A stretch of 64,000 nt of DNA from Cystobasidiomycetes sp. EMM_F5 (GCA_051047955.1 JBPGPT010000004.1:496001-560000); one strand, 5' to 3'. Numbered from the stretch's first letter, positions 25,843 through 62,000 are shown. Program-made: numbers and translations. The notes: generated by a model not told the origin, from the letters alone.

Positions 25843-28800
25843 ATGACTGCTGCCATCATCAACAAGCTGCGCTTCAAGCGGAGCGAGAGCAGTATTGACA
25901 AGAGGGCCATTCAGCACACCCACGCAGAGACACACACCAGCCAGCGACCAGCAGCGTGGGCAGAGGATGCCCATATTGACACTGACGCTGCATCCCCTCT
26001 CCTCGATGTACCCCTCACGGCCGACTTTGACTTTCGAACCAGTGTCATTGTGGTGGGCATATACTGAATACGGTGTCATTGTCCAGACTGACGACGTCGA
26101 CAGCCCCAGCTCATATCCACCCAAGACAATGACGAGCTCGTCAACATGTCGGCAAGGTACAGGTCGCCGTATCGACGCGGAGCATGGCAGTCGTCGGTGC
26201 CGGTGAATGGGAGGGGAGGGGGCAATGAGGACTCTTCAACGTCCGTGTCCTCGTCAAAGGCATCTCGGAGCATTGATAGCGCATCCTCTACATCCCACTC
26301 GCACGCTGTGGTTCGAGCACAACCCACAGCAACCACGTTGACGGCCCGATATATATCAAGTTCGGCCACCCACTCGCACGCTATGGCTCGAGCACAACCC
26401 ACAGCAACCACGTCGACGGCCCGATATATATCAAGTTCGGACACTCACTCGCACGCCATGGCTCCTGCGCAATCCACAGCAACCACGTCGACGGCCCTCA
26501 CATTCTCCCTGTCAAGTTCGTCCACATCCACATTCGCCACGTGCGCTTCCTCACCCAGCACAGCATCACTCGCGCCCTCTCCGTCCACCGCCCAAGCAGA
26601 GTTTTACGCAGCGAGGGATGCTGCACGCGGACACGGCTTGTTTAGTGGGGGTGTGCTCGAGAGGGATGTACTGAGTAAATTGGGCATACATGAGGGAGGA
26701 GAAGAGAATGGGAGAGAGACACCGACGAGTGTGTCGAGTCGGAGCGGGTGGGTAGGTGGGAGTGAAAAAGGAAAGGGAAGGTCGAGAGGGTATAGTCGGG
26801 CGAGGAGTCCAATGCCGGATACGCTTGCAACGAGTCCTCCTCTCATGACAAATCCGATGCCATTAACGCTTGCAACCAGTCCTCCTCTCCCTCCCCTACT
26901 CACTACTCATGCTGGGTCGCCAGCGAAGACACAAGAATATGATCCATACAGACCGCCCATCAGTCCACAGCGGGATGGCACCAGCTCACATGCCAATCAC
27001 AACGACGACACAAACGACATACCAAGTAGCGCTTCAACAGTTTTGCCAAATCAACAAGGTATGATCCCCACTGCATCGACCAATGTAACTGCGCTAGGCA
27101 ATAAATTGTCAGACATCTCGAGCCCGACACAGTACTATATGCGGGCATTCGAGAGTAATCCAATGGACGGACGTGCACATTCCAGCACGTCGCACGAGGG
27201 TCAAGCTGGTCGCGCCTATTCTCAGTACGACTACGACTTTTCAGCATCCGAAGACGAGGGCAACAATCTCGTAAATTCGTACGTATACAGCCAAGATGGT
27301 ACACATTCAGAGCGAGACGCGTCGTCGGCGCACCACGAGGACGGAAATACGCTATCGTCAAACGAATTGACGATGCACTCTATATCGTCCGGCGCGGATA
27401 TGGACATGCATCCGTATAAGGCGTTTCGATACGACGACACCGCAGAGATTGACCCTCCTTTACGACGTGTACCATCAGAGCAGGACCTAGTGCAGCGGAC
27501 TCTTGCAGCGCAAGATCGTGTGCTTGTCTCCGGCGAAAAGCGACAGCCGCGCGAACAAGCTGATGCCGCTGTAGAGGTCGAAGTGGAAGTGATGACGGCT
27601 TCGCCCGACGTCTCTTCAGTGGGCTCGCCCGCTTTGAGTTATCTGCGCTTGTCCTCCGATACGACGCCGACTGTTCCCAACTCGTTTCTAGCAGCTCTCA
27701 ACGGAGCGAGTGCAAATGTCCGACAATCTGCTGTATCGGCAAATTCTGCAAACTCAGCTTATGGAGGTATACAACCCGCCAGTCCCCCCGCAACAACTCA
27801 GACGACCAATTTTCCCCCGCTCTCGCCCACGGCTTTGCCTCGATCTACGAGAACGTCAAGCTGGTCACAGCCGCGTACACCACCTCCATCTATGAGTCTG
27901 CCAGCAATACCTACGAGCTCGTCGCTCAACAAACTCGATACGGTAGCGGAGGGACCTTTGCAATCGCCCGTTAGACCAAAGCCGAAGAGTCACAGGAGTA
28001 GTGGACTGAGCATCCTTTCTGCCGGATCGTCATATCGTGGTCCATCACTTTCGTATGCTAGTGAAAACATACCTCCTTCGCCGACCTCGCCGTCTACAAC
28101 GCCCGGGACCGCACAACATGACAAATTGTCGGATCTTCTACAAGAAGCGCCCCAACGTTCCTGTCTGATTTTTGGAAACGATGAATCTATGGAGACGGAT
28201 GTACAGGACATGGAAGCGTTTCTCCTAAATCAGGTCGGAGGTCTGGATATACAGGACCTCGTTGCGATGCAGCATCAGCTCGCGACGGTACGTGAACAAG
28301 GTGTAGTATCCGAAGCGAAAAGCGATACTGTCGAAACTAGTGTGACGCTGGATGATGCGCCGAGCGCGCGGCTAGACAATGCGGACGAGGCCTTTGCTCC
28401 AAAGATAGATATGCGTGCCTCCGGTGACGACTCGCAGGCCACTGCGCCAGATGTCAGCGGCAAATCTATAGATCTGTCTGGCGAAGAAGCGGCTGGGACG
28501 GTACTGGCGATAACAGCCCCAGTAGATGCGCCAACGAAGCCCGACAAATTACTATACAACACATCTCCGCTGACAAGCCCCGAACGACAGCTTTCGCAGA
28601 AGATCTCGAGCACCTCGCATCCCTCCACTCCTGTTCAGCCATCAAATGGTCATGCAGAAGTCGATGCCTCGTTGAGCATCACTCAGCCGGGCGATATTTC
28701 GACAGATAGCTCGTTTCTCAGTCAACCTTATACTCCGCCAAGCACATTACGAGGCATGCCTCGGCGCGCTCCCAACTCGACCCCCTCTGTCCTCCTCAGA

Positions 28801-31093
28801 TCAGTCCAATTGCAAGCGCAGGAAGCTACGACAGCACTGAAGGGCAGGTCACCTCAGAATGACGCTTTCGTATCTCAGATGCCTTCCGAGCCCTCTCATG
28901 GGTTTCTACGAAAGCGAAGTCCATCCCTCGCTCGCAGCAAATCCGTCAAAAACCTTAAGATCTCCGATCCCAAACTCGTCAGTACAAGTGCAAATTTGCA
29001 AACCACAAAAGAATTGCCACATCCGGCTTCTATCAGCCGTGTTGCCCTCACTCCAGTATCTAGAGCTGTCACATCACCATCTGCGAGCGAGCAGAGCTTC
29101 GCAGGCCACGATGGTAAAGCGAGTCCTGCAGGTTTCTCGTTCAAGAAGCGCATTGCTCGAGCGGCATCTGCCAACAAATTATCACGCCAAGATGAGAGAC
29201 CTGACTCGCCTGCTTCTTCTGTATCGCATCTCCGTTCCGACTCGGCTAGCCATTCGCGAGGAAGTAGTGGCGATACGAGACCTAGCGACGTGCATACGGG
29301 CATTCGATCGTTAATGTCAAAACTGACCCGTCGTAAGCCATCTCTAAGACATACCGTCATGATCCCAGAACCTTTCGTCATCAGCCCTCGAGCTGCCACA
29401 TTTTCCAATAGCATCGCCAATGGTCAAACGCCAAGGGACGAGCAGAATGGAGACTTACAGCCTCCGAGCACGCCGTTCTCGACCCATCGAAATGGGAAAG
29501 GCGGTTCCTACACGGGCAGTGAGGCCGGCAGCCAGCTCGCAGATGTCAGTCCACTCAAATACAACGCAAAGACTTCGCCTGTGCGTGATGTCGGAAGTCA
29601 GTCTGCAGCGAATGAAAGCCAGGAGGGCAATCCTCGAGCGTCCGCCGCCAGTCTTGAAAGCATGCGCAGGCTTTACGAGGCTGCCAGTGCTCTCGGTCTG
29701 GACTCAGACAAAGTCAACGATTTGATCGATGCAGCCGGCTACAGTCGTAAATCTGCATCACTGCAAGCTGTGCTACAGGCATCTACACATGAACCTTTAA
29801 CTCCCGTCTCGAGTATGGTTTCTCCAGCGAGATCACCCGAATCGTCTCGTCCCTCTGGTGACTTGAGCCTCGCATCTCACGGAGAAGCAGAAGTAGATTT
29901 CTCAAATACATCTTTGGCAAGTCCGTTGCGAAGAACGCCTTCCTCACGACGCAAAATGCCCCCTATAATGAGTGGTCTACAGAGCAGCAGTCAGGCTTCC
30001 CCGTCAGCTCCATCGGAATATCATGCGCGAAACCAGTCCAATGTATCTTTGTCTGCTCCTGGTACTTCGACTAACACGAGCGAACATCGCCGCTCCATCC
30101 GGGACAGACCTGCTACGCCTCCACCCACTCGGTCGAGCGTACACCGTCGTCGCAAATCGGAGGCACAAGAGGCCGAAGGTATACTGCCCATCTCTGCTTC
30201 CAGCTCCAACAACGCCATCAATACGCCAAGTGCTATTAGACGAATGTCTACTGTTAATGCTGTCGTAAATGACGTCCGCTCAGATGTGCAGCCTGTACCA
30301 GTAGCCCGCACGGGCCTCGCTGCGCCAAACAACCCGCACGCACGGACGTCTGCGATGTCATCGAGAACACTTGGCTCATATGATGCACGCTCTATATACG
30401 GCATGTACGAGTACGACGACGACGAGCTACCGCCAATGTCGCATCTCAATGTCATCGTCGCGTCTGGTCATATCCCTGCTCCATCGTTCGCAGCCAAGCG
30501 TGCATCGATAAATCTGGCTCCCGGCATCGACCTCTGCAACTTCACTAAGGGTGCATCAAATCGTCATTCACGAGTCGAACTGACGGAATTTGCAAATGGC
30601 GATATTGCCTTCAACATTGTACAATCGTTGAGAAACAATGGCCAACTATCCGCTTCTCCTAGCGGACGCGATACATTCTTCCCGATTGAGCAACTGCATC
30701 GCCGTATTGAAAGTGGAAGCAGCTATGGCGAGCAAGACATAGACGATCACGCCGAAGAAGAACCATCACCCAATCCAGCCGAAGCAGATCCACTCCGGTT
30801 GCTGGTTCGTCGACATCAGAGGACGCATCCGTCTGGCGCAGGTCGGGAGTACCAACCAAAACGCCGTACGAATGTGGGAATGCCTTCGTCACACTCACAA
30901 CAGTCTATAGTACGTCTAGCATTGGGAACAATCACAAGTAAAGTATGTCGGATAGCAGCGGAGCTGACACGGCGCTTTGCAGGTTGATGTTTACGAGGCA
31001 AACGAAGATCAAGTCGCCGCTCTTATTGAGGAATTGACACGCGGACTTGACGAAGGGCAGTTCGATCTGTCACGCGCAAATCATACTGCATGA
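25843..31093 (+). CDS. Large (~1700 aa) Ser/Pro-rich, mostly disordered fungal protein of unknown function
   Basis: Upstream exon 25843-26052 splices in frame (DFRTSVIV|PQL) into the 1613-aa ORF. A last exon after an intron at ~30874-30982 ends GLDEGQFDLSRANHTA*. Confidence 0.75.
26294..26500 (+). repeat. Coding 75-bp (25-aa) tandem repeat, about 2.8 copies
   Basis: HSHAVVRAQPTATTLTARYISSSAT / HSHAMARAQPTATTSTARYISSSDT / HSHAMAPAQSTATTSTA. Confidence 0.9.
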
Positions 31094-31245: not shown

Positions 31246-33489
31246 TCAGGACAACTTCTCGTGATGTGCTGGAACCGGCCACAATGCCTCCTCCCATGCA
31301 AGCAGCCTCTGCTGGTGCTGTTTGAGCTCTTGAGCAGATATTTCGACGTCTAAGGCATCGTTAATTCCAATTAAAGTTTTGCCTGTGGCGTCTCGCAGCA
31401 TGGCCGTCGTTGTGTCTGGATTGCCATGCATTGCTCCAAAGTACGTCTCACTCTTTCCCATGACGTACGAATACCTCTGAATCAAACGTACTGCGTACGC
31501 TCGGCGTAGCCGTTCGTCTCGAAGCGTAGATGACGGCGTGAAGTCCGCATCTTGCCAAGTAAGGCTAGTTCCGCCAATGAACGCCTGCAGGGCCATGTTG
31601 TCCTCGGTTGATATCGCGCCTCGTTTCGGCGGCAGAAAGGCCTCGAGGCCTACCTCGCCAGATGCTCCCAGCAAAGCCACGATGATGCAATCTCCGCATT
31701 TTGGCCGTTGGAAGGCTATGCGTTTAAAAGTGGCTTCCGGCACATCAGACGTTTCTGCTCCAAAGAAATTACTGCCGAAGCAGCGGGTAAGTGAAACGCT
31801 GCAGGACACTGGGTATCGCCCATCAAAGGCGCCGAAGGAAGTATTTCGGCTGTCCGAATAGGGGTAGCCGTCCGCGCTGGTGTGTCGATACCAAGTCGTA
31901 GGTGGATGCAGCCCTGCTCGCCGAAACACAGGCTCGATAGACTCATTCGCTTCCGTATCGAGCGCTGCAAGTCGGTTAGGGGTGCGAAAGCCTAGCCTGT
32001 CACCGGCTCGCTGTCCGCCTAGAGACTGCAGCATAGTATGTTTCTCGCCTATCGACCAGCTGTTTGAGAGATCCGAGTCTGATTTGAGCATGATAAATGA
32101 CCAAAGTAGAGCTTCCCGATGTTTCTCAATATTCCAGAAAGCGCTGAGTAGAGGTGCGTAGATCTCGTTTCCCGTACCGCGGAATCTGACTGCGCTTGTC
32201 TGGACCAATGGCTGTCAGCACACTGTTTTAACACGATACAGCGATCACCAACCTCTGCTACCTCCGACTGCCAAACTTCACTGACTTCCTTAAGCATTGG
32301 CACATCGATCGTGTACGGTACGTGCTCGAACCAATTACGGAATCTCTTGCCGAAGCGGGCGTCCACAAGACTTGCTGTATAGGCGCTCACTCTACCACGA
32401 GCCTGAGACTTCAGACGAAGGAGCTCCTCAGGATTATCTGTACCCTCGAACCACTTTCTATAATCGAGGCGATAAACCGGGCCATATAAAGCGGATGCAA
32501 AATCGCTCTGCGCGACAGCTTTTGCAATGTACATGTCATCGTTAAGGTATACCTGATAAGAAAGTCAGTCAAGCCCCGGCCACAAGCTGCAGACAAAGCC
32601 ACACAAGAGTATCGCTGAGCCCGGGTACGTTGATCAATTGACTTTCTATTGCATGTGAGTTGAAGGTGGGAAGGGTCGTAATCCGATCTTTCAGAGAAGA
32701 GCTGAAGACATCCCAGTGAGCGATGAAGCGGATTTTACTGCTAGGACCTTCGCTGGTGAGGTTGTACCAGGGTGGGACTTGCATCTTATAGCAAGGTCTG
32801 TTTGGATCGACAGCTTCCGATGGCGCCGTCGCTTCGTTCGGTAAGGAGCAGGGAAGTGAGGTCGAGAGCACGGATCCTGTGCGAGCAAAGGGCATGTTTT
32901 GCGATACCGAGCGCATGGAATACTTTAATTGGCCAAGGTCCCGGAAATTTCGTGCCCGCCCACCTTGCGAGGGGTTGCTCAGCTGTGTCTTTCGGGCGAA
33001 TTCATCCTTCCAAGCCTGGAAGTATGGTGTATTCTGCACAAAGGTCCATACTACATCGATGGGTGCCTCCAGGTCGGCTTGCACCGGCTTGTTCAAGTCT
33101 GTGAGAAGTTCAGCGCACAGCACACCTTTGCTGATCCACTGATCAGCGCACTGCAATGACATAAGCCGCTGGCTGCCAGTCGGCAGCACAAAGTGGGTAG
33201 AGGCGATCGAACTATCGCCTGGCATAGGATGTCGAGTGACGAGGTTATCTTTGTAGCTGGACAATGGTCGACGAAGACCAAGGTAAACCTCTACACGAAA
33301 GTAGAGAACAAGACAGCAGAGTCCACCGCAGAGAATGATGAACGTCGGCAATTGGCGACCGCATCGCCTCGCTTCGTACAGGCTGATTGCTGACCCGCTC
33401 GACTGCAGCATGGGTATGTAGCTCGCATGTCTCTCGTCGTTATTAGCATCGTTGATAGTACCCACTTGTATGGGCAGAGCCAGGCTCAT
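31246..33489 (-). CDS. Stealth-family sugar-phosphotransferase (XPT1 xylosylphosphotransferase-like), copy A
   Basis: N-terminal TM segment; CR1 IDVVWTFV; CR2 FRDLGQLKYSMRSV..LPTFNSHAIESQL..YLNDDMY; CGDCII; CR4 IGINDAL. Confidence 0.85.
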
Positions 33490-33605
33490 ATCCGATCGCC
33501 TTTGTTCCGCGATCCCAGTAGCAGAAATAGGTGCGGACTTGACCCATGCATAGGGAGTATGCGACCGAGTACGTGGCTTTGGAGATGTCTCTAGAATAGC
33601 GAGAA

Positions 33606-36372
33606 TTACCGTGCATGCCCCAGGTTCTCAATCTCTGAAGGTATGGGCCACATAGCGCGATGCCAATCTTGTAGAATTCTCTCGTGTTCTTCCTCTTCTT
33701 CCGGAGAAATATAATCACTCAAACCGTCGTTAAGGGAGATGAAGGCAACAGGGTTGGTATAGAGCTGTGAAAGTAGCTGCTCCGTTGAAGCGGGCTGATC
33801 GTGCATCTTCTCATGGGCATAAGTTGATTCGCCTGCAAAGGCCGCAAGTTGTAAGCTTGAAATGCTGCTTACCATGCTTGACGCAGTGTAGAAAGCTTAC
33901 CCAGGACGTAGCTATATCGCTGTATCAAGCGTACGGCAAAGTCACGTTTGTGCCATTTTCCGAATTGCAACGCGGTATTCAAGGAGAAATCGCCCAATCG
34001 CCAATCGGACGAAGGACCGCCTATGAATGGGGCAGGATTTGCCAAGCTGTAGGAAGCCTCTGGAGGCGCATCTGAAGGGGGAAGGAACGGCTCCAGCCCA
34101 TCGATGCCAGCGCGATTCAACATTGCTGCGAGTATGCAATCGCCGCACTTTGGTTGAGCGAAGGCGACATTTTGGAATATCCACTGCGCAGGCGGACTCT
34201 CTGTTTCGTCTAAATCGAAGAAGTCCTCGCTTCCAAAGCAAACTGTGATGTTCAGTCTGCAGAAGACCGCATCTCTACCATCCAGTTGAGGGTACGCTTG
34301 ACGAGATCGCCAAAAGAAAGCATAGGTGTCCCTGCTGGTCCAGCGATAGACAGTTTCACGAGGCACTGCTAATCCAACGGAGTGCAAAAGAGCGTTGACT
34401 TCTCCATTGCGATCGGTTTGGGTTGCACTAGATCGCAGAGGTACGCGGACGACGATAGTGTCAGCTGAGCGCTTGCCTCCAATTGCACTGAGCAGTCCGC
34501 TTTTCTCGTCTGCTGAGAAGGAGTTCGACTCGTCTGCGTCGGTGCGCGCCATCAGCAGAGACCATAGTAATGCCTCTCTGTGCTTCTCCATGACGTATAG
34601 GCTGCTGAGAAGCGGAAGGTAATACTCTGTACCCCTCCCACGAAACCTGACTTCGGCGGTCTGACAGCCCCAGAATCAGTGACGAACGGCTGGAAAGTAT
34701 CATGAAGACATACCTCTTTTAGTTCACGCCCCCAGATCATAGAGCATTCTTCAGCCATGGGTATCGAGATTGTATGGGCAATGTGTTCAAGCCAAGGTCG
34801 GAGGCGATGACCGAAACGCTCGTCTGGAACACCAGCGGCATAAGTACTGGTTCGGTTCGGAGAGCGCAACTCACCTATCAAGCCGACAGTGGAGGCGCTG
34901 ACCCTGTTCCGCGTCTCTGGATCGTATCTCCACAAGCCCCGCCTACTCCTGCCGAGGACCCAATGTGTTGCGCGGAAGCGGATTACCGGTCCAAACAACG
35001 CCGAAGAAAAGTCGCTGGGCTCCATACGCTGTGATGAGGTCAGTATTAATCATTTTCATTACCAAACAGTCTTGCCCACCTTGGACAAGTATGCATCATC
35101 ATTTAGATATACCAAGGTCTCGGCATTGTCAGCTATATTCGCCAACTGACTCTCTATCGCATGACTGTTGAAGACAGGCAGTGTATTCGTTCTCCAATTA
35201 GTTATGCTGTGGGTGAGAGAGGTACTGAACGCATCCCAGTGGGATACAAGCTGTATGCGCGATGATGGGAGCACTGCCAGTGAGGCATTGAGCCAAAATG
35301 GCGCCTGCATGATCCTACAGGAGGCTGTGCCTTCCAGCGTCTGCTCAAACAGATGGGATTCTAAATCCTGCGACTCTGGGGGACCTGCAATTGGCAAGGA
35401 TGCCGAGAGCAGAGAGGCTTTGCGCATAAAGGGTGCATTCTTGATAACTGAGCGGATGCCATATCGTAATTGGTCATGGGATCGGAAGTTCTTGGTCCGA
35501 GTGCCCTGTTCAGCCTTGTATCGACGTTGTCCGGTAGCATAATAATCCTTCCACGATACCCAATGATTACTGTCTTCGACAAATGTCCATGCGAAATCAA
35601 CGACTGCTTCAGGTAGCGTACCATTCCTGCTGTTACCCAGTAGCTCGTCACACAATGTGCCGCGACTGATCCATTGATCGGCACAGGCTTGTGTGAATGT
35701 AGTTTCTCCGGCAGTCTTGCGGAGTTGTAAGCTGGGATGCTCGAATTGTTCTGATTGTCCCTCATTTGATGTTGTTGCGTGGACGATCCACCCGGGGTCA
35801 TGAAAGTCAACCTCCCGACATTCTGGAGGTTTCGGATAAGCATGCGGAACCGCAGCGACATCGTGATGTATCCGCAAAGGCGGAGATGCCCGCTTCAAGT
35901 CGTGCGGGAGTGGTAAATTGGCATGTATCTTTGCAGCAAGTTTATGCAGCGAATCGTAGCGCGGCTTGTCTAGATAGACATCAGTAGAGATGGAGGCTGA
36001 CAGGAGGAGCACTGCTGATAATATGCCTATCATGCCGCACATGCACAACCGGCTTTTGCGAGCCTGTACAAACGAGGCTGATCTTAGACGTGTCGAGACG
36101 TTAGAGAACGACCTTGTCCTGAAACCCTTGTCATCGACCTTTTCGTGATATTCCGGCAGAGGCTTAGTTGGAAAGGATGCCGTATAGACCGAGCCGTCAA
36201 AGCTTGGGAGCCTGCTAGGTGGTGTGTCGAGGGTGACTATCGACAAAGACGCTTCGAATGAGGAGGACGCGGTCGGTGTATGCTCAACGACGCCATCCGT
36301 ATACTTGGGCGGACGGCCAGAAAGACTGGCTCTTCGTACCGCTGTATCGTGAATGGCTTCCAGCTTCGGCAT
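33606..36372 (-). CDS. Stealth-family sugar-phosphotransferase (XPT1-like), copy B
   Basis: TM segment; VDFAWTFV; FRSHDQLRYGIRSV; LPVFNSHAIESQL..YLNDDAY; CGDCIL; FISLNDGL. Confidence 0.85.
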
Positions 36373-36912
36373 CAGTGCAGCTCAGGATATGGTCAAAATA
36401 GCGGTTGCGTCTTCTGTATGAGTACGTTCAGTCCCTCAGCGAGCCCACAAGGCGTGGGAGGTTTCCGAAACTCGTCGACAAAGGAAACACGGACTCTTGA
36501 CCACATCTTAGCATGCGTCACGCATTCTCGCAGCCACGCCAGCAAATGTAGACCTATCTCGCACTCTGGACAGCTGATTGCAATCAGTTCAGTTACATCG
36601 GCCTGACGAGCAAGTCGGAACGACGTTCGTGTCTTCAGATTAGCACAAGCATGGGTGGAGCAGCTGCATAGAGTCGTCTGAAGCCAGTAGTGCCGGCATG
36701 ATGTAGGTTAAAGCAAATTGGCAAACGACAAACAGCCATCATGCTCAAGGTCAACCAGGTAGTAATCAGTTTGAAAGACATCAATTACGCGGCTGCATTA
36801 GTGTTTATTCCTTATCGGTATGCGAGACTGACTATGCTAGACTTGAACAGAAAGCGACAATGAGGGGTCGCATGCAGTCTTCCCACCTTTCTTGCCTCCG
36901 CCCGAAAAGACC

Positions 36913-40844: not shown

Positions 40845-41927
40845 TTACAGATCTATATTCATAAAAAGAGGAAGTCAGATCTGGGAGAACAGCACCTTGT
40901 ACTTGACCATACCCGGATTGAGGTCCAGATCGAATGTACTAAAGTCCTCTTCTTCGAGATATCTTGCAACCGACGCCAGCGATTTGCGGGTGGTCGATGT
41001 TTGATGTACGGGCTTGATGTCTGAACTGGGCCCTGATGCTGCCGCTTGCTCGCCTGTAATAGCAATTGCTGGTGCTGGTGGGGCTGTTCGGCCGCGATGA
41101 TGTATCGTCATTGTACGTTTAGTAACAGATACGGAGAGACAACCATGAAGAAACATCAATGACGACCCATTGCATATTCCTTAATGACAGAGACGACGTA
41201 CCTCCAGCGGCAGCCGTAGTCTCGCCAATTTCGCCAACTTCTGCAAAGGCTAAACGACCGCGTCGCATCACCTCCTCTGTTGGATAGGGGAGTATGGCAC
41301 CTGGGCCAAGGTCCGCCAAGCTTGCTGCCTGGTTTCCTTCTGGCAGTATACTGCGGGGCGGAGCAGATGTGAATGGAGCCAGTAGCCGAGCATATGAGAG
41401 GATAGTTGACGGTGTCAACTGTGCTGGATGAAGAAGTTCTTTAGGCGTGAGATAAGATGCAAACATCGACGTATATACTTACCCTTCTCAGCCTGCTGTA
41501 TGGCTTCCCTCTCCTTTGCGCCTTGCGTCAGTAGCTTTTCGAGCAAAACGCGGTTGTTTTCGAGCTGGATGACTTCGCTAGCCCATTCTTTCTCGTACAC
41601 TTCAAGTTGAGCTTCCAACTGCTCTATTCTCCGCTGATTCCGTACATGCTGTCCCGCTTTGTCTAGCAAGATTGCCAATCTTTCGTCAAGCTGACCCAAG
41701 GCGCGCAAGGAGGATATCGTCGATGGTGCAGCGCTGCTCGATGCGGCTTTTGCACTTGGCTGATTCGTTGCAGCTAAGCCAGTCCCGGCATATGAAGGTC
41801 GCGATAGATCATCAAAGATTGTACTGACATGTTCAGAGAATTGCGACAGAACTGCCAGCAACGACGCCGAGACGGGCACTTCGTCTGAAGCTACTCCATC
41901 AACTGGCAGTACAAACGGCGCCGTCAT
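40845..41927 (-). CDS. MED4: Mediator complex subunit 4
   Basis: Coiled coil, ILSYARLLAPFTSAPP and PYPTEEVMRRGRL; ends FDLDLNP|DL* via an 8-nt terminal coding exon (40845-40852). Confidence 0.85.
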
Positions 41928-42149
41928 GGCTGCAGATTGTACACTCTCATGGCAGTCGAGCGAGCATGATGTCGGCGTTCATGAATTGAAACAGAGACAA
42001 CACTCCAGTACAACAGCTAGCAAGTTGGCAGACGAGTGAAATGAACATGCACGTCTCGCTAAAAAAGATGATAAACGCCAGCACGCAGCTTATGGCAGAC
42101 TGCCCTGTGCGCGAAACACAGTACAGCCTGACGGGTAGAATTGTCACCA

Positions 42150-42371
42150 TCATCGATGGTTACGGACACGAGAGGCGCCTCGTTTGCGCTTCTTGGAATT
42201 CACCCCGCCTCCTGCTGGATTTGCTGCGGGATTGTCAGCAGCTTGAAGCCCGCCGGCGTTGCGGATTACGGCTTGTTGCAGTAACGACTGTTGTCGGGGC
42301 GTGGAGGAGGCAAGCAAGTGGTTCGGATGCACACTTGCGTATTGGAAAGGAGCACCGGGAGGAAGAGGCAT
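42150..42371 (-). CDS. Microprotein paralog 1 (73 aa; QYAS...KKRKRG)
   Basis: MPLPPGAPFQYASVHPNHLLASSTPRQQSLLQQAVIR...NSKKRKRGASRVRNHR*; clear similarity to 42807-43007. Confidence 0.7.
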   Translation of the reverse strand: MPLPPGAPFQYASVHPNHLLASSTPRQQSLLQQAVIRNAGGLQAADNPAANPAGGGVNSKKRKRGASRVRNHR

Positions 42372-42433
42372 GATCTTTCTTTGCGGTCGCGACGTGGATG
42401 GGGAAACTGCCAGTGCGCGTCAAGTGTGGAGAT

Positions 42434-42455
42434 GTCACGCAAGCAAGAGTGCGGC
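42434..42455 (-). promoter_or_regulatory. Shared upstream element (plus strand GTCA-N4-AGCAA-N4-GC), copy 1
   Basis: gtca cgca agcaa gagt gcggc, about 63 nt upstream of the paralog-1 ATG. Confidence 0.55.
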
Positions 42456-42806
42456 ATAGCGGCAGGAGCATTCATCACACGGTGTCACAGCTGGTGATGC
42501 ACAGCCGCGTGGTGCAGCAATGTATTGTAGTGACATGCCATCTATTTGCTGCTGCTTCAAGCTCGCAGCTACGCAAGTTGGTACAGATGAAACATCATGC
42601 TCACAGAAAACGTGGATGTGATAGTGCCGATGAGCTGACACGAAGGCGAGACTTAAAGTAGTATACCGAGGCGCGAGAGATAATCGAGGCGAGAGGCAGG
42701 CAGCCGCGCGAGGGTTTAATGTGTAGGCTAATAATGATGCTTCGCTATCGTACTATTCAATATGAAGCTGTTGGCCGTCGAAGCTTGTCATGATTGATGC
42801 CAGCTC

Positions 42807-43007
42807 TCATCGAATGAGGGAACTGGCCCCACGTTTGCGCTTCCTGGTGGGGACTACGCTCACAGGGGCGGGCAGCAGACTGTTGCGAGGTGCGAAGCCC
42901 GACCCCATGACAGCTCGACGTAACAGAGATTGAGATGTCTGGGCTGGAAGCAGTTGGCTTGGGTGCGCGCTTGCATACTGGAGTGGTAAGTTGTTGAAGG
43001 TAGGCAT
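42807..43007 (-). CDS. Microprotein paralog 2 (66 aa; QYAS...RKRKRG)
   Basis: MPTFNNLPLQYASAHPSQLLPAQTSQSLLRRAVM...PTRKRKRGASSLIR*. Confidence 0.7.
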   Translation of the reverse strand: MPTFNNLPLQYASAHPSQLLPAQTSQSLLRRAVMGSGFAPRNSLLPAPVSVVPTRKRKRGASSLIR

Positions 43008-43077
43008 TGTCAGCTGTTGATGTCACGAGTAGGAAATGGAGAATGATTGCGCATAACCGAAAGATGAGCGGAGAAGC

Positions 43078-43099
43078 GTCACTTCAGCAAAATCGCAGG
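43078..43099 (-). promoter_or_regulatory. Shared upstream element, copy 2
   Basis: gtca cttc agcaa aatc gcagg, about 71 nt upstream of the paralog-2 ATG. Confidence 0.55.
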
Positions 43100-43448
43100 T
43101 CCATCAGCGACGGATCAAGCAGTGCCGCAGCAGTACAAGCACAGCCATCCGTCAAGAGGAGGGAATTTGCCACCCGTTTGCTGATCAAGCCCCAGAACCG
43201 TGCAGAATCGCCAAAGGCATTGAGCTCCGAAAAGCCCTAGGGTTGGTAACACCCAGATGTTGGTTGATTCATTCGCAAGTACGCAAACTTGGACCAGTTG
43301 ATTTCCATATTCAGGCCTTTATTCATTGGTAAAACGAGACTCCGACAAAGTCATGTCTAGCATGCCAAAATGTTGACAGACTATGCTGTATGAGAAACGT
43401 GCTTACGAGATCTACTCGTCATCGAAAGCCTGACGCTTCCCGCTAGCT

Positions 43449-43610
43449 CTATCGCCGAAGATTTGGCACGACACCGCGTTTGCGCTTCCGGGATAGGGGT
43501 ATACCTACCGGACCGGCCGGAAAAGTGTTGGAAAGCGTGAAAGCATACTGTGGTTGGCCATGGGTTGCAGCAGCCTGGCTTGACCGGCGGCCGCTCACGT
43601 TCGAAGTCAT
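43449..43610 (-). CDS. Microprotein paralog 3 (53 aa, absent from the ORF track; QYA...RKRKRG)
   Basis: Hand translation: MTSNVSGRRSSQAAATHGQPQYAFTLSNTFPAGPVGIPLSRKRKRGVVPNLRR*. Confidence 0.6.
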   Translation of the reverse strand: MTSNVSGRRSSQAAATHGQPQYAFTLSNTFPAGPVGIPLSRKRKRGVVPNLRR

Positions 43611-43744
43611 ACTCGAGTATCGCAGTGACGAATTGATGGTGGAGTTTGTGATCGGAGTAGTGTGGAGTAGTGATGATAATGCGTACTGGTGTCACAAAAT
43701 GCGTGGATCAAATGACAGCCTAAGGTGAGATGCTAAGGAGAGAT

Positions 43745-43766
43745 GTCATCTCAGCAAATTGGCGGC
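43745..43766 (-). promoter_or_regulatory. Shared upstream element, copy 3
   Basis: gtca tctc agcaa attg gcggc, about 135 nt upstream of the paralog-3 ATG. Confidence 0.55.
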
Positions 43767-44192
43767 TATAAGTACATCACACAGTGCGCTGCCACAGCTA
43801 GTCAAACACAGGCAGACGCCGGAAAAGACCCAATTGAGTGACGTGTGCTTCGTGTGTTGCAGATAAGCTGAAGCGAAGACTGTGTGAACAAGATGTGGAC
43901 AGCCACCTCGCGTACCCTGTGCGGTGATCCCGCGAGGGCTGCACGGTAGCGATGTTAGCTAGGAAGTCAGTATACGTCTTCGACTCGCATCAGTCCACAT
44001 GTGGCAAACGGGGTAAGGAATAGGTCTGGACGACTGCGGGATAGATTGCATAGATGTCGATACTTGCGTTTAACGTATACATCGTGACATGGGATAGCAC
44101 ATCTATTAAGAGAGGAGAGGAATTAGGCACAAGCACTTTGCATGCACCAAATGCCTGAGGTGTAGTCGTCGAAAACGCTACAAGTTGCCCGC

Positions 44193-45322
44193 TCAAAGGT
44201 CGGCATCCTCCTCATCAGGCAGAGGCATGGCGGAAGCAGCCTCCATCTCCTTTGCGTATTGCTCGAGAAGCGCCTGGTCGACGACAGCTTCGGGTGGTGC
44301 AAGAGCAGCCTCAGCTACAAACTCGAGAGACGAGTTGCTTGAAGATCGGATCGTTAGCATCGCTCGCTTTTTGACTGGACAGATCAACATGGGACTTACC
44401 CAACCAATTTTCTTGCGAGCCAGAGGAATGGCTTTTCGAAATTGTAGTTTGACTTTGCGGAAATTTCATAGTATTGCAAATTCTTTTTGCGGTGGAAAGT
44501 GACTGTGCTCGTCTTGACTTTGCGCTCCTGAAAGATTATACAGGTGAATCAGCTCCGCATGAAATGTCCGTATCGATGCAGTCTGACTGACCTTTACGTC
44601 AACCTTGTTGCCGCATAGGACGATTGGAATATTTTCGCAGACGCGCTCGAGATCACGGTGCCAGTTTGGTACATTCTTGTAGGTAATCTTGGAGGTGACG
44701 TCAAACATGATAATTCCGCACTGTCCTTGAATGTAGTAGCCATCTCGGAGACCTCCAAACTTTTCCTGGCCTGCGGTATCCCATACGTTGAAGAGGATCT
44801 CTCCAAGGTTTGTGGTGAAGCTGTGGTAGAACATCAGCATGACTGCCGTGACGTTTCTACAATCGTGTCGAGGTTGATGTGCACGCACTTGATGGGGTGG
44901 ACCTCGACACCGAGGGTGGCTGTAGGGAAGACGACCCGGCAGATTGGCAGGTTTTAGCACTTGACGGCGTTTCGTAAGACTTCAACACGCGTTAAAGTCG
45001 CCTCACCGATGTCTGCAGGGCAGCAGAGAACGCACGAGTCAGCTTGGCTCCAACAAAGTCCAGTGAAAACCAGGCCTTGGAGGGGATGCCGTTCTTCACA
45101 TCGCTCAGCTAGCAGCTCACTCACATTTCTTTTCAAATTCTCCAGACAAGTGACGCTTGCAGTAGGTCGTCTTTCCTGTTTTGCGGTCGCCAGAGGGTTT
45201 GCAGAATGGTCAGCTCATCCTTTGATGGACCTGATACGCCTGGCTGGCTCTGAAACTTGGGTGGGCGCACCTGTACCGCCGTCACCGACGAGGACGAGCT
45301 TGAATGTTGGTGGTGTTGCCAT
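44193..45322 (-). CDS. GSP1: Ran GTPase
   Basis: [62 protein letters not shown] and acidic tail PDEEDADL; includes a 6-nt micro-exon at 45007-45012. Confidence 0.97.
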
Positions 45323-45607: not shown

Positions 45608-46984
45608 CTAAACAACCATCTCCACGTCGCTTGTACTCTTCTTGCTATCGTCTTTCGTTGTTGTCTTAACTTGCATGTCCAGACTCGGAAAGTCTGCTCG
45701 TTCCGCCAACAAGATTTCACCCCACGCCAGCATGCGGAGCAAGTTGGGCAGCTTGGGAGTCGGTCCGTGAGACTGCGAGGTGAGAATAGCCGCATTCACC
45801 TGCGCAGCTGTCGATTGGCGATGCGCAGGATGTAGTAAGCTCGTGACGAAATCAGGTATACCACCCGTCTCCCCCTTTTCTGCACCTTTCGCAGTCGCAG
45901 AATCCATCGAGGCGGCACTCGCAGCAGCCGCAGCAGCCGCTTCTGCTGCCGCCAGATCCACATCGTACGCCAGCAGCGTCATCGTCCGCTCTAGTTCGGC
46001 TAGAAACTCGGGATGCTCTTCACCTCGTGGCGCTAGCTCCTGCTGAGCAAAGTCGAGAGCTTCGTCAATCTTCTTTTGACGGATGAGCTCAATCATTCGC
46101 TGCTGCTGCAAATGAAAGTAGAGAGAAGGGTTGTTGTCCAGAATCTGTCGCAGGGTACGACAGCGTCAGCAGCTGGCACTGAACATTACGTTATCCGGTT
46201 GATACGAGGGGTTGCGAGCTCATAAGAGACGTTATGGTTTGGTTGTGTCCTTGTCTGTCATCCTAGCTGAAGCCCACACCAAGTCGAGAACGATATGGTT
46301 TGAGCGCAGCTGAGAGTGGTGCATTGTTGTTGAATCATGGCGAAACGGGGAAGAGGAGAAGTTGCGCAGACACATTTATAGCAACTCACTTCTGGGTTCA
46401 GATCGTTGACGCGTTCTATAGCGTCCTCAATGTCGCCTTGTTGAATAGCGTTACGGATGGTCATCCGGGTCTGGATCGATTCAAAATCCGCCTGAGGATC
46501 CATGCCAGCTTCTCTTGCAAAGTTCTCGGCTGCTTCCTTGTACCCTTCGACGACAAGGTAGTCCATGACGAGCCTATTTAGGTCGCTGCAATTTTCGAGC
46601 AAAAGCAAGGTCGTCAGTCACCACAGCTGACATGACAGCAAAGACTCAGCGATGAAGATGGAGTGTGCATTCAGATACGAAGTAATGTTGTTTCCGCAGA
46701 GCCGCAGTCGCTGTGGACGTGCAGCCTTGGAGAGATTCCCACTTCTGTGTATATTTTCATCCGTAGGTCGCGGCGTTGGAAGCAGGCGAGAGGCTCGAGG
46801 GAAAGCTATCCCGCAAGGCTTTTTACTCACGATTTGTTGACCTGCACAGCGTCGAGTTTGGCATCCCAGTCTGATGGCCGGATTGCCAGGCGCTTGACGG
46901 GCGCAGCAGCTGTCGAGGCCGACTGCGAATATTTGCGAGCGAGTGTCAGTCCAGTCTTGGTGGTGGTTCATAAATGCACACCAT
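45608..46984 (-). CDS. GID8: GID/CTLH E3 complex subunit Gid8 (TWA1; LisH-CTLH-CRA)
   Basis: [67 protein letters not shown] and LERTMTLLAY; first exon appears to end at the ATG. Confidence 0.92.
46218..46342 (-). ncRNA. Intronic C/D-box snoRNA candidate, snR40/U32-like, SSU rRNA guide
   Basis: Lies in the 245-nt intron 46389-46145. C-like ATGATT, 9-nt guide ATGCACCAC complementary to 18S GUGGUGCAU, then T+CTCA (D'), C'-like GGATGA and D-like ATGA. Confidence 0.5.
46668..46767 (-). ncRNA. Intronic C/D-box snoRNA, SNORD79 (U79)-like, LSU rRNA guide
   Basis: Lies in the 245-nt intron 46830-46586. C-like GGATGA (46762-46757), 12-nt guide AGTGGGAATCTC (46743-46732) complementary to LSU GAGAUUCCCACU, D'-like CCAA, and D box CTGA (46674-46671). 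Confidence 0.65.
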
Positions 46985-47378: not shown

Positions 47379-50300
47379 TCATCGTGTAGACGACGACAGC
47401 ATCCGCTCGCGATCCTTTCGACTGCCTCGGTCCAGCTGATTGAACGCAGATCGTACTCCGCCAAGATTTCCAGTACCGATTGCAGCATTGAAAGCCTCCA
47501 AGAATCGTCGACGCTCGAGTTCTCGCAAAGACTTGGGTGGTATCTGCGCGACAGCATTCGGCACCCAGACAGCTAGCTCCTGCGGGAAGCGCTCGGCTAT
47601 TAGGCGAGTGAGGGTAATGGCAGTCGGAGTGCAATCTTCGTGCAAGTCCGTGACTATCCGAGTGGTTATGATCTGAACCAACTGCGCGCCGATATCAGGT
47701 TGTACAAACGCCGATCGAACAGCGTTGGCATACGCCGTGTTGGCAGCGGCAGCTGCGGGATCTGCACCAGGCGGAGCGCGTGCTGACAGGCAATCGTGAC
47801 CAACGACTGACCGCATCGTGTCCAGGCCATCCAGAGCAACGTTCGCTGATAGTAGGGTCGTAGCTGCTACAGCTATCCGCAAGGCGTTGCTGAGTGAATC
47901 TGAAAGTAAGCCAAGCTCCGGGGCAGCTTCGATCAGATTTCTAGCAAAGTGCAGGTAGTCTTCTATGCCTGGACGAGCCAAACAGTCAGGTTCAATGCGC
48001 TTCTCGATGCCGCAGAGTCATATCTTACAATCTTGAATGTTGGCAGGATCTGCTTCTGCAGACAACATGGCCACGAGCTTATTGGTGATCTCGGTGAACG
48101 CCGTCTGTAGGTCGGCTTTGAGTTGATTGAGTGCGGCTTGGTCTATGTTCGGGAGCCGCAGAAGCTCTGGCACGCGACCAGCTATCCATACGTAGCCCGA
48201 TACACCCGTCTGCTGAAAGTTTAGCGTCATCCTGTTGAGCACCTGAGGTATCAGGGGTATGCATAGCGGTCCGAAGAAAGTCATGCCTCGTCGGATGGTG
48301 GAGCAAGCTCGCTCCGATAGCTTGGTGTTGCTGCCAAATTGGACCAGCAGGCTCTCCAAGATCTGCCATACTTGTTGCGCTGTTGCCGCACATTCAGATG
48401 GAAGACTCTCGCTGAGGTATGCATTGACGTGGAGATAAGTGTTGAGTCTCTCCAAAGAGTCTGTTGTCTACTGTCAGCCGTAAGAAACACATGCAGAAGG
48501 TATGAGCGTACCAGCTGCAGCTGTCAATTCAGCTTTCGTAGCTGTACCGTCGCTTCTTGCACTGAGCACTTGAACCTGCGCGAGTAGCGGTCCACAAAAG
48601 GTTTGCAAAGCAGCAACTGCTTCTGCGGGTGCCATCTTTGCAATGATATGGGCAAAGCCTTCCGTAATCTCTAGAAGGTCATCTTGGTGCAGCGATGAGC
48701 CATACTGCTGGGTGAAGTCGAAAAGGGCCGGTAAGTAAGTGACAAGATGCTGACTGCAGTCTTTGCACAAGTATTTCAGCGCGGCGGCACTTGCTACTGC
48801 CACATCATCTTGCTGCGTGTGGAAGCCAGCCAGGATATATTCTAGCATAGAAGGGATGAGTGTAGGATGAACCGATAGCCACTCAGTGTATCTGGACACC
48901 ACGAGGGTAGCGGCATATCGAATTTTGCTTTCAGACTGCGGCAGGCGAGGTATCGCAGCGAAGACCCGTGGCATTATTTGATCCTCTTGCAGGTCGACTC
49001 GCATACCCATCGCTCGCATACTGAACAAAGCAGCCTCAATGGCTTGCCAGCTTCCGGATGCACCCTTAGCCACTTCTGATTCGATGATGTCCAACGAACG
49101 GCCTAGACATGCAGCTGTGCCAAGGACAGAGCAGCAGTCTTTGAGAGTATCCCCGATATCGTGGCGGAAAGCGCGAAAGTCGTCCTTCTCCTGCCCAGTG
49201 AGGGTATTTAGGTCTTGAGGATACTGCAGGTGTGCGATGACTATATCGACCAGTCGTCCGATGACGGTCAAGAATGGCTGGCACGATGCATCGTTCAGAA
49301 AACCGCCTTTACGCAAGCCTACAGACAGCTTGTACCAAAAGTTTAGGGTAATTCCGACGACTTCGAGATCGCTACAAGCCGCGCAGTCGGCAATAGCCTC
49401 AACCAACGGCAGAAACTCGGCTGGATGCTGCAGCATGAGCTGAGCATACCATTCTCCCGCTTCGACCAGAACCCGGCAGTAGCCTTGTATCCTGTCTCCA
49501 TCTTCCGCAGCGATGTCTGCTGTCAATCGTGGCCGTTGTTGTACTAACCTCGGTACAATGGCTTGTATGACTTGCATGTTTTCACCGACTTCCTGAGTTT
49601 CGTGAATGAGGTCAACTAATGCATCGACTCCGTCGTCAAAGAGTTCTTCTGATGTCAATGCCGTAAAGATGAAGTCGAAGAAAGGCGTCTCCTGCACGTC
49701 TATGGGATCTACTTCGCCCGCTCGTAGCCATGCTCGTACAGTATTGAGAGTCTGCTTTTGCACTGCTGGCGTGATGCCTATCGTATCGCTGTCAGTAAGA
49801 GAAGCGAGGGCGCTATAGTTTACATACCTGGCGCTTGCAGGTACATCGACAGTAGGGACAGGACTTTCTCGCCGGCCCGTGCGTGCCTCCATGTGGTATC
49901 GTTCTACTCGAAAGCAAAATCAGTACGAATTGCGAGAATCGTAATGTGTCCCCCACTCACGGTCACTGTTATCCGACTGTTACTATTGTATTCTTCGGGC
50001 AATTGAAGCAGAAATTCGAGCAAGGCAGGCACGGTGGACGCATCGCTGCCAAGTACCTCCACCATCTCTTGCACAGGATTCTGCCAACTCGGCAATTGCA
50101 GCAGCAGATCCGCCAAGGCTAGACATAATTGCGTAAGAATTGCTTTAGGGCCGGTGACGGCCTGTCGAATGGCTGCCACGAGCGTGTCCTTGAGCGGATA
50201 CTGTTGCTCCTGCGGTAATTGGTCGAGGTCATATATGATCTAGTATAATTGAATGTTTGTGACAAGTTGGTCAGATTGGCTCTGGGAATGATTCGTCTGA

Positions 50301-59820: not shown

Positions 59821-62000
59821 ATGCAACCTCAGATAAACGTACAAGCTCAGCAGTCCCGTTACCATGTGGATACCCTCAATTCAAGTCCAGAAATTGACTT
59901 GCGCGACGTGTCCATCACCGTGGGCGATACTCCCATCCTTGCATCTGCTCACATCCGTTTCAAAGAAGGTGTCCGCTATGCTCTGCTGGGACGAAATGGG
60001 ACTGGCAAGTCTACCCTCATGAAGGCCCTCTCGGACAACCTCATACCCGGTATCAACCCGGCTCTCCGTATCACTATGCTGTCTCAGGTTGGCGTGCCGG
60101 ATTTGGAGCAAGGTGCACAGACCAGCGTCATTCAGACCGTCCTTTTGGGAGACAAGGAGCGACAAGCATTACTCCGCAAACAAGCTATGCTCAGCGAGGC
60201 TGTCAACAACAACGAAGCCGAGCAAGTCGCTGCTACGCTAGCACAGCTCCTTCTCGAGCAGAGACAGCAGGAGTTGGTAGATGTCCGAAGAATAGCAACC
60301 AGGCGATCTGGTGCTCGAGGCAAAGTAGCTCGAAAAGAGGAGATAGCGGCTGAAGAGGAAGTAAAAGCAGCTGAACAACGGCTGGACGCCTCGCGATGCG
60401 CTCCCTCTGACGACAGCATGGAGAAAGCCGTACAGATGCTCGCGGACATGGAGTTGCAACTCAACCTCGTCAGTAAAGCTATTCACGTTGCTAACACGAA
60501 GCTGAAAAGCCTGAGCTTAACTAGCTGGAGAGCGCTTCGGCGGAAGCACGCGCGCGAGCTATTCTTTCCGGTCTGGGCTTCACCGACTCCATGCTAGATG
60601 GTCCGTATGCTCGCCTATCCGGCGGATGGCGAGGGCGATGCAGCCTCTCTGTCGCACTGCTTGTTCAATGCGACGTCTTGCTTCTCGACGAACCCTCCAA
60701 CTACCTTGATCTCGAAGCTTTGCTCTGGTTGGAGCGATACCTCGTTTCTAGACACGGTACTCTGGTCGTTACGTCCCATGATCAAACGTTTCTCGACCAT
60801 ATCGCACAAGAAACAGTCGTGCTCAAGAATGAGACATTAAAGTATTTTGACGGTACTCCCACCAATTACCAGATCGAGGAGAAGAAAGAGCGTCGCAACC
60901 TCGTTAAACAGCAAGCCGCGCTGGATAAAAAGAAGGAACACATTCAAGCTTCAATTTCACAAGGTATGGCGGCCGCACGAAAGACAGGTGATGACAATAA
61001 AGGGAAAATGGCTAAATCGCGGCAAAAGAAGCTGGACGAACGCTTTGGCGTTGAAAAATCAGCCAAGGGTACCAGATTCAAACTAAATCGAGATCTTGCC
61101 GGCTATCATCTGGCTAATCGAGCTGAGCTGGTTGTAGAGGAGGAAGAAGGCAGCTCGCGAATTAGCCTCCCCGAACCTGCATCTTTGCGCACCACTGGGA
61201 ATTTGATACACCTGGAAAAGGTTTCGCTCAAGTTCAAGGGCACGGCCAAACCTTTGCTGCAAGACGTGAACTTGACGATACCTCAAGGCGCAAAGCTGGC
61301 AATTGTGGGCCAGAACGGGCAAGGCAAGTCTAGTCTAGCCAAGCTCCTAGCTGGTCAGCTCCCACCATCCAGTGGCTCGATCGAGCGACATCCGACAGCG
61401 ACAATAGGTTTCTACTCTCAGCATCTATCCGAAGACCTTTCGTCGGTCGAAGATACTGCACTGCAGCACTTTGCCAAATGTTTGGCTGAAAAGGATCGGA
61501 AAGCGGACGAGCAGACCATCCGGAGAAGCTTAGCTGCGTTTGGCCTGCAGGGGAAAACAGTTTCAGCAACGCCAGTTAAGTCGTTGTCAGGTGGACAGAA
61601 AGTAAGGCTTGCAATGGCGTTAGTTGCATTCTGGCAGCCGTCCCTTCTCATTCTGGATGAGCCTAGCGCTCATCTTGACGTCTCCACTGTGCAAGCTCTT
61701 GGAAGAGCTCTTCGCAATCACAAAGGAGCATTGGTCATTATCACTCACGATCGTTGGCTGTGCAAGTACGCCATCGAAGGATGTTCGTTTACCCAGGCAT
61801 TTGGCGACGATGCAGCGTCAAGAGAAATTGAAGGCGAACACGATTCTAATGAATCAGATACAGCAGAGGACAATAGTCGCGGTCTTGTGCTGCGCATATC
61901 AAATGGCAAGGCGAAGCCAATGGACAAAGGAATTGATGGTCATGTAGAAGCAATCGAGAGGAAGCTTGCCAAGTTCGAAGCTATCTTGAAAAATGGCTAA
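59821..62000 (+). CDS. ABC-F family soluble ATPase (two ABC domains, no TM segments)
   Basis: GRNGTGKST, LSGGW and LLLDEPSN; GQNGQGKSS, LSGGQ, LILDEPS and ITHDR. Confidence 0.92.

Follow-up and report, generated by a model that had tools for sequence, protein, structure and literature searches.

Orphan small genes are common in fungi. According to the accessible part of one paper, small open reading frames (sORFs) are often overlooked in fungal annotation (PMC7394265). Among the described systems with which the locus reported here can be compared are the proteins Hug1, Sml1 and Dif1 of Saccharomyces cerevisiae and Spd1 of Schizosaccharomyces pombe, presented in the available extracts of two papers as small, disordered regulators of ribonucleotide reductase (RNR), with Spd1 sequestering the small RNR subunit in the nucleus (bioRxiv 10.1101/2023.05.11.540346; PMC4245953). 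The extract of the first of these also gives the consensus of the PCNA-interacting protein (PIP) box, Q-x-x-aliphatic-x-x-aromatic-aromatic, and describes the PIP-degron of Spd1 as lacking both aromatic residues (bioRxiv 10.1101/2023.05.11.540346). We analyzed a stretch of 64,000 nucleotides (nt) of Cystobasidiomycetes sp. EMM_F5 (GCA_051047955.1 JBPGPT010000004.1:496001-560000; 52.3% G+C, no N), referred to below as the window. The 2.27-kb gap between the stop codon of a Ran/Gsp1 gene and the start codon of a Med4-like gene in this DNA holds three ORFs on the minus strand, spaced by approximately 650 nt. Comparison of these ORFs with each other indicates that two of them (copies 1 and 2) are probably unannotated orphan small genes.

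Copy 1 occupies positions 42150..42371 (73 amino acids (aa); the span includes the stop codon), copy 2 positions 42807..43007 (66 aa) and copy 3, read from an internal ATG at 43610, positions 43449..43610 (53 aa). The homologous frame of copy 3 is open from stop to stop over positions 43452-43691 (part entry 43449..43691). The ORF starts are separated by 636 and 603 nt; a first-pass annotation of the window, which had described three co-oriented ORFs of these lengths starting about 0.6 kb apart, was reproduced in its coordinates, on the minus strand. A (K/R)KRKRG sequence is located close to the C-terminus of each product, 8, 6 and 7 residues from the end in copies 1, 2 and 3, respectively (KKRKRG at residues 60-65 of copy 1, RKRKRG at residues 55-60 of copy 2), in agreement with the 6-8 residues reported earlier for all three. 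The 23-mers encoding RKRKRG (copy 1, 42174..42196; copy 2, 42825-42847; copy 3, 43470-43492; all on the minus strand) are spaced by 651 and 645 nt and have 13 bases (GAAGCGCAAACG plus G) in common, while the 14-mer AAGCGCAAACGNGG is found without mismatch at only three places in the window, one in each copy.

The similarity of the three ORFs goes beyond chance, as the first-pass annotation had proposed in calling them paralogous. A tblastn search of the window with copy 1 retrieved copy 2 (E=3e-8, 43% identity over 67 aa), and a search with copy 2 retrieved copy 3 (E=0.005-0.006, 29.5% over 61 aa); the similarity between copies 1 and 3 is confined to the basic patch. A profile built from the three copies retrieved these three ORFs only, and no fourth copy was found with it among the ORFs of the window (next-best ORF, E=0.39). 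Copies 1 and 2 have the motifs QYASxHPxxLL and QSLLxxAV in common, as previously noted. Two further features ascribed to the whole trio proved less informative. The string QYA is present in all three ORFs, but that of copy 3 (residues 21-23) is not positionally homologous to the others, whose aligned counterpart is RYS, encoded ahead of the copy 3 ATG within the open frame. Similarly, a CGA codon precedes the stop codon of each ORF, but this common ending finds no support as homology, the 3′ flanks being unalignable above shuffled sequences. The three ORFs thus form a true tandem array. It is best explained by the triplication, long ago, of one single-exon gene encoding a small protein, with conserved blocks (putative promoter or leader) upstream of every copy; taken together with the nuclear mechanism proposed below, this explanation is about as likely as not.

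Several lines of evidence point to protein coding by copies 1 and 2. When the alignment was translated in six frames, only minus-strand frame 0 was free of stop codons in all three copies, and it also gave the highest aa identity of the six (29/66, 13/63 and 18/62). The antisense frame sharing its wobble positions reached 24/62 and contains, in copies 1 and 2, a stop codon between the two conserved motifs. In a DNA alignment built blind to frame, mismatches between copies 1 and 2 at codon positions 1, 2 and 3 amounted to 11/44, 10/44 and 24/45, respectively (Fisher p=0.0007), and a second, simpler count gave 15, 17 and 32 of 64 each (chi-square p=0.002). No codon periodicity was seen in any pair over the 230 nt upstream (p=0.53-0.86). 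The method of Nei and Gojobori, applied to copies 1 and 2, yielded proportions of synonymous (pS) and nonsynonymous (pN) differences of 0.68 and 0.41, with a synonymous divergence (dS) of ~1.8 and a ratio of nonsynonymous to synonymous divergence (dN/dS) of 0.33 (p=0.0008). Since the underlying alignment was made on the frame-0 protein, this estimate favors frame 0, a bias that the frame-blind DNA alignment removes. Over the six frames, the difference between pS and pN was significant in frame 0 and in its wobble-sharing antisense frame, and not in the other four.

The pattern of substitutions within the motifs is of the same kind. The residues of QYASxHPxxLL and QSLLxxAV are kept in copies 1 and 2 while nearly all their synonymous sites differ, and the RKRKRG block has two variable sites, each with three different bases and all of them synonymous, at third positions of an Arg codon (CGA/CGT/CGC) and a Gly codon (GGC/GGG/GGT). 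The aligned ATG CCT start of copies 1 and 2 is preceded by A at position -3. The log-likelihood of codon usage, trained on the 14 ORFs of the window of at least 300 aa, was +10.4, +6.1 and +5.2 bits for frame 0 of copies 1-3, compared with -0.4 to -33 for the other five frames. Acidic residues (D+E) number 1 in 202 in frame 0 versus 5-21 in the other five frames, and they make up 10.3% of the long ORFs of the window (P=7e-9). The paralogue comparison demonstrates that the minus-strand frame has been under purifying selection in copies 1 and 2, their synonymous sites and 3′ flanks having meanwhile become randomized, and we consider it likely that both copies are translated genes. Coding selection, which had been suggested for the trio, is supported for these two copies (third-position excess, pS>pN, a frame-specific codon score and a single frame open throughout). 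It finds no support in copy 3, where periodicity is absent and the original start codon is gone.

A 110-aa ORF on the plus strand (42041-42373), antisense to the whole of copy 1, was judged to be probably spurious: its frame contains four stop codons in copy 2 and one in copy 3, and its codon score is -5.9. On the plus strand, the RKRKRG block of copy 1 is read in another ORF frame than that of copy 2.

Conservation between the copies extends upstream and not downstream of the ORFs. Compared with shuffled sequences, the coding sequence (CDS) alignments gave z=8.6, 3.5 and 5.8, the 230 nt upstream z=5.2, 3.2 and 3.7 (with ~170 nt alignable), and the 220 nt downstream z=0.4, 1.9 and 0.8, i.e. 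these could not be aligned. It follows from the unalignable 3′ flanks that neutral sequence has been randomized since the duplications, and that the reading frame and three upstream blocks (A, B and C) remain. Judged from the alignments, this profile is as expected of a gene. All blocks are on the minus strand: (i) in copy 1, C at 42383-42395, B at 42422-42449 and A at 42480-42506; (ii) in copy 2, C at 43018-43029, B at 43071-43096 and A at 43120-43146; (iii) in copy 3, C at 43686-43699, B at 43738-43765 and A at 43787-43813. Their distance from the ATG is 11-139 nt in copies 1 and 2 (12-135 nt in copy 1 by itself), and copy 3 has them 46-173 nt ahead of the aligned start. The octamer RTGACAYC is present at 42431-42438 and 42481-42488 (copy 1), 43019-43026 (copy 2), and 43688-43695 and 43742-43749 (copy 3); in the blocks it is on the gene strand, 5 of its 13 occurrences in the window are inside the 1.4-kb array, and across the window as a whole it is not enriched (13 observed vs 10.2 expected).

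The upstream blocks are non-coding, showing neither periodicity nor an ATG-initiated ORF common to the three upstream regions. Their RNAalifold consensus fold is weak (-7.7 kcal/mol over 197 columns), and an Rfam search gave no match at gathering thresholds; three sub-threshold matches (E 0.67-3.1), to unrelated animal or viral families, were rejected. We infer that blocks A-C belong to the promoter or leader; in that case, the copies would be co-regulated. Block B also contains a 13-nt near-palindrome around TGAC, GAGATGACATCTC in copy 3 (43738-43765) and GAAGTGACGCTTC in copy 2 (43071-43096). Two of its positions are changed on both arms, so that symmetry is preserved between copies 2 and 3; in copy 1 it is lost. 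The near-palindrome could be a site for a dimeric factor or a small hairpin.

Copy 3 differs from the other two. In place of the ATG CCT of copies 1 and 2 it reads ACC ATC, and its own ATG is therefore internal and secondary. It keeps an open frame, RKRKRG with synonymous variants, the upstream blocks, a complete absence of acidic residues and a positive codon score. Because the ancestral ATG has been lost and codon periodicity is gone, copy 3 is probably degenerating; it may be either a fast-evolving, truncated (strongly diverged) paralogue or a decaying one.

The putative products are of 5.7-7.7 kDa, have an isoelectric point (pI) of 12.0 in all three cases, and contain 9-10 K+R residues, no Cys and no Trp; P, G, S, A, Q, N and T account for 56%-62% of their residues. 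AlphaFold2, run on the three-sequence alignment, gave a mean predicted local distance difference test (pLDDT) value of 58.9 and a predicted template modeling (pTM) score of 0.13, with one short helix at residues 28-36 (QSLLQQAVI, numbered as in copy 1); the C-terminal basic tail is outside any predicted structured element. The products are accordingly predicted by the model to be intrinsically disordered and to carry short linear motifs.

The consensus of the monopartite, importin-alpha-dependent nuclear localization signal (NLS) is K-K/R-X-K/R, and that of basophilic kinases of the AGC type is R-x-R-x-x-S/T. Matches to K[KR]x[KR] were found at residues 60/61 of copy 1, 56 of copy 2 and 42 of copy 3. 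In copies 1 and 2 this motif is overlapped by RxRxxS, as RKRGAS (at residues 62 and 57, respectively), and copy 3 reads RKRGVV. The C-terminal KRKR cluster would act as a classical monopartite NLS, concentrating the peptide in the nucleus via importin-alpha. A basophilic kinase could adjust import by acting on the Ser located three residues past KRKR in copies 1 and 2, and the QYASxHPxxLL motif together with the QSLLxxAV helix may contact a folded partner. It is plausible that KRKR directs the products to the nucleus and, given that copies 1 and 2 are translated, we incline towards the view that their basic tail acts as an NLS. For the putative roles put forward in the first-pass annotation (nuclear regulators, import adaptors or NLS decoys), the match to K-K/R-X-K/R is the sole basis.

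No known family had been recognized in the first-pass annotation, and a confident hit to a described one was looked for in protein and RNA family searches without success. Pfam gave no family for any of the three ORFs, and the best match in the PDB profile search was at E=0.012 (19 bits). In the protein searches, copy 1 yielded 1 candidate at near lengths and copy 2 yielded 70 candidates at longer lengths, in neither case with E<=1. A search of 1.84 billion representatives with the three-copy profile produced two hits with E<=0.001, to long tandem-repeat proteins (12 and 5 matched stretches), which we regard as spurious. The metagenome scan with the alignment of the trio gave 104 pattern matches, none of them confirmed. 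A further scan with exon 1 of Med4, intended to reveal syntenic loci, returned 367 pattern matches and a single locus (L001), also judged spurious: in the positions inspected (1-1500), the match covers residues 87-117 only, within a frame of 56 aa that runs antisense to longer ORFs. In the ESM Atlas there was no usable match to copy 1, and the best one to copy 2 (0.76, a bacterial cluster) was under the 0.9 lead level. Among the literature matches listed, available in part, the string RKRKRG appeared only in virus papers, and among those listed for basidiomycete small ORFs and microproteins there was no such family.

The weight of these blank searches depends on the sampling of the lineage. 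The product of an ABC-F ORF of the window (60525-61997, plus strand) is itself in the database at 100% identity, and its nearest non-self relative among 5.8 billion clusters is 54% identical (a Sporobolomyces species), followed by proteins of Agaricomycetes and Microbotryomycetes at 49-53%. Judged by this comparison, the basidiomycete lineage to which the genome belongs is sparsely sampled. As the best non-self match of a conserved ABC-F protein is at 54%, the blank searches say little about the spread of the family.

The array fills the interval between two genes on its own strand. A complete Ran/Gsp1 gene with several short introns (~60-110 nt) is located directly upstream, on the minus strand (start 45322, stop 44195-44193). 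Its ORF at 44469-44981 matches Gsp1 and Ran chains (E=6e-45), and its last exon (44196-44390) matches residues 168-219, the very end, of Gsp1 (E=1.7e-14). Downstream of the array is the Med4-like gene (ATG at 41927, minus strand), whose match to Pfam Med4 (E=3.5e-5, 24 bits) is just below the 26.9-bit cutoff. A gene for an importin of the TNPO3/IPO13 (Mtr10) type (47382-49919, minus strand) is located ~4 kb from the array, and a gene encoding a CTLH domain at 45611-46165. The Pfam scan of neighboring genes covered 17 ORFs in part of the window, including Ran, Med4, CTLH, DUF5427, TNPO3-like, Stealth, MCM6 and ABC-F. The occurrence of two nuclear-transport genes, Ran and the TNPO3-type gene, beside a family with an NLS-like tail may be a coincidence. 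Elsewhere in the window there is a paralogous tandem gene pair (31249-33627 and 33872-36381, both on the minus strand), the second member of which contains Stealth CR2 and the C-terminal ORFs of which are clearly similar, as well as a 1631-codon open frame (26092-30984, plus strand) with no Pfam domain at E<=0.001.

The following observations weigh against the interpretation of the array as genes for small nuclear proteins: (i) a single pair of paralogues, copies 1 and 2 (~66 codons), supplies all the evidence of selection, no homologue having been found beyond the window; (ii) pS also exceeds pN in the antisense wobble-sharing frame (p=0.002), which is set aside solely for its stop codon in copies 1 and 2; (iii) compared with the 157 window ORFs of 50-80 aa, the per-codon usage scores reach only the top 6-17%; (iv) copy 3 shows no third-position excess relative to copy 1 or 2 (p=0.23; p=0.95-0.98 in the second count), and despite this it keeps the 13-nt invariant block, which would also fit a DNA- or RNA-level element; (v) the three ORFs, like the antisense 110-aa ORF, were absent in an exact look-up in a collection of 15 billion proteins; (vi) with regard to the NLS, a four-residue match is weak evidence of localization, and proteins of 7 kDa cross nuclear pores without a signal.

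The array might instead consist of non-coding repeats, either cis-regulatory elements or parts of a non-coding RNA, in the service of Ran 3′-end formation, of the Med4 promoter or of an unannotated transcript, with the ORFs being incidental. The lack of periodicity in copy 3 and of predicted protein matches in the collections searched would then be expected, as would the fact that the best-kept element is the 13-nt invariant DNA block; moreover, the conservation of the upstream blocks (z=3.2-5.2) equals that of two of the three CDS comparisons, and the five RTGACAYC sites of the array, out of 13 in the window, are all on one strand. Such repeats do not account for a third-position excess in copies 1 and 2 that has no counterpart in the upstream DNA (p=0.0007), for one frame remaining open in three copies despite saturated divergence, or for a codon-usage score that is positive in frame 0 only, where a single residue in 202 is acidic. 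The Rfam result and the weak consensus fold of the upstream blocks also argue against them, and we regard a non-coding array as rather unlikely.

It is highly improbable that the ORFs encode precursors of processed peptides, comprising a conserved leader, a variable core of ~20 residues and a Kex2/furin-type site (RKRKR|G), or a leader, core and follower resembling those of ribosomally synthesized and post-translationally modified peptides. The layout fits such a precursor, with motifs conserved at the N-terminus, little conservation in the middle and an invariant multibasic site towards the end, and the literature matches listed for RKRKRG, available in part, include the multibasic cleavage site of influenza haemagglutinin. 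However, no N-terminal hydrophobic segment, such as the signal peptide of a secreted Kex2 substrate or of a dikaritin-type peptide, was found by hydropathy, used without a dedicated signal-peptide predictor (the maximum Kyte-Doolittle mean over 9 residues is 0.59-0.96), and the product would therefore have no route to a Golgi protease. The C-termini (NHR, LIR and LRR) carry no CAAX box, Cys is missing from every copy, and there is no tailoring-enzyme domain among the 17 neighboring ORFs scanned against Pfam. Least probable of all is that the ORFs belong as exons to a larger, spliced gene, for instance as alternative first exons joined to Med4 or as repeated internal exons: the three ORFs and Med4 are on one strand, with the end of copy 1 222 nt ahead of the Med4 ATG, and local genes are intron-rich, but there is no sign of splicing in the ORFs, described as intronless in the first-pass annotation, since (i) no donor is common to the copies after RKRKRG, the candidates differing in sequence and position, unlike the Ran donors (GTGCGC, GTGAGT, GTGAGG, GTGCGT, GTCAGT and GTAAGT), (ii) the downstream 220 nt contain no conservation that could be a next exon, (iii) in copies 1 and 2 the frame is interrupted by stop codons 5 to 21 codons ahead of the aligned ATG, and (iv) neither profile searches nor those at longer lengths gave a larger protein with these motifs.

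The reading that we prefer, i.e. that copies 1 and 2 are small genes, says little about function. Any specific partner or role for the products must be considered quite unlikely. It is very unlikely that they are lineage-specific nuclear microproteins with NLS tails, serving as modulators of Ran/importin transport or as disordered regulators similar to Spd1 and Hug1 that would act through a degenerate PIP-like helix, and co-regulated through RTGACAYC; the context of the transport reading, with Ran immediately upstream and a TNPO3/Mtr10-like gene ~4 kb away, is not evidence of function. If copies 1 and 2 are translated, they represent unannotated genes of a poorly sampled basidiomycete lineage, and they illustrate that real small ORFs can be told from chance ones just by comparing paralogues, where relatives or RNA data are absent. 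The array would add one more family to the orphan small genes and opens no long-standing question.

Compared with described systems, the array resembles the lipopeptide pheromone precursors of basidiomycetes in containing short intronless ORFs in several nearby copies. Those precursors, however, are defined by a C-terminal CAAX box, for which the ORFs of the array lack the Cys, and no pheromone-receptor or homeodomain gene was present among the 17 neighboring ORFs scanned against Pfam. With Hug1, Sml1, Dif1 and Spd1 the predicted products have in common a small size, full disorder and short linear motifs; SML1 and HUG1 are, in addition, neighboring genes. The Pfam and PDB profile searches revealed no similarity to these proteins, with the coverage of HUG/Sml by Pfam unchecked and no direct comparison made. 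In copies 1 and 2, the sequence QSLL(Q/R)(Q/R)AV agrees with one half of the PIP box (Q-x-x-aliphatic), as this is given in the available extract, but both aromatic positions are missing, being occupied by A-V, and copy 3, with Q-A-A-A-T-H-G-Q, is without the motif. A role of the PCNA or RNR type, suggested by analogy with this half-motif, is a lead and no more. As in classical monopartite NLS cargoes, K[KR]x[KR] is found in an exposed, disordered C-terminal tail of all three copies; the NLS is nevertheless a motif and not a family, and these products are small enough for passive entry into the nucleus. The closest likeness in kind is to the taxonomically restricted orphan sORFs of fungi, which are also short, disordered, without homologues and missed by standard gene calling. 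Most orphan sORFs come without evidence of purifying selection, whereas the internal paralogues of this array indicate it directly.

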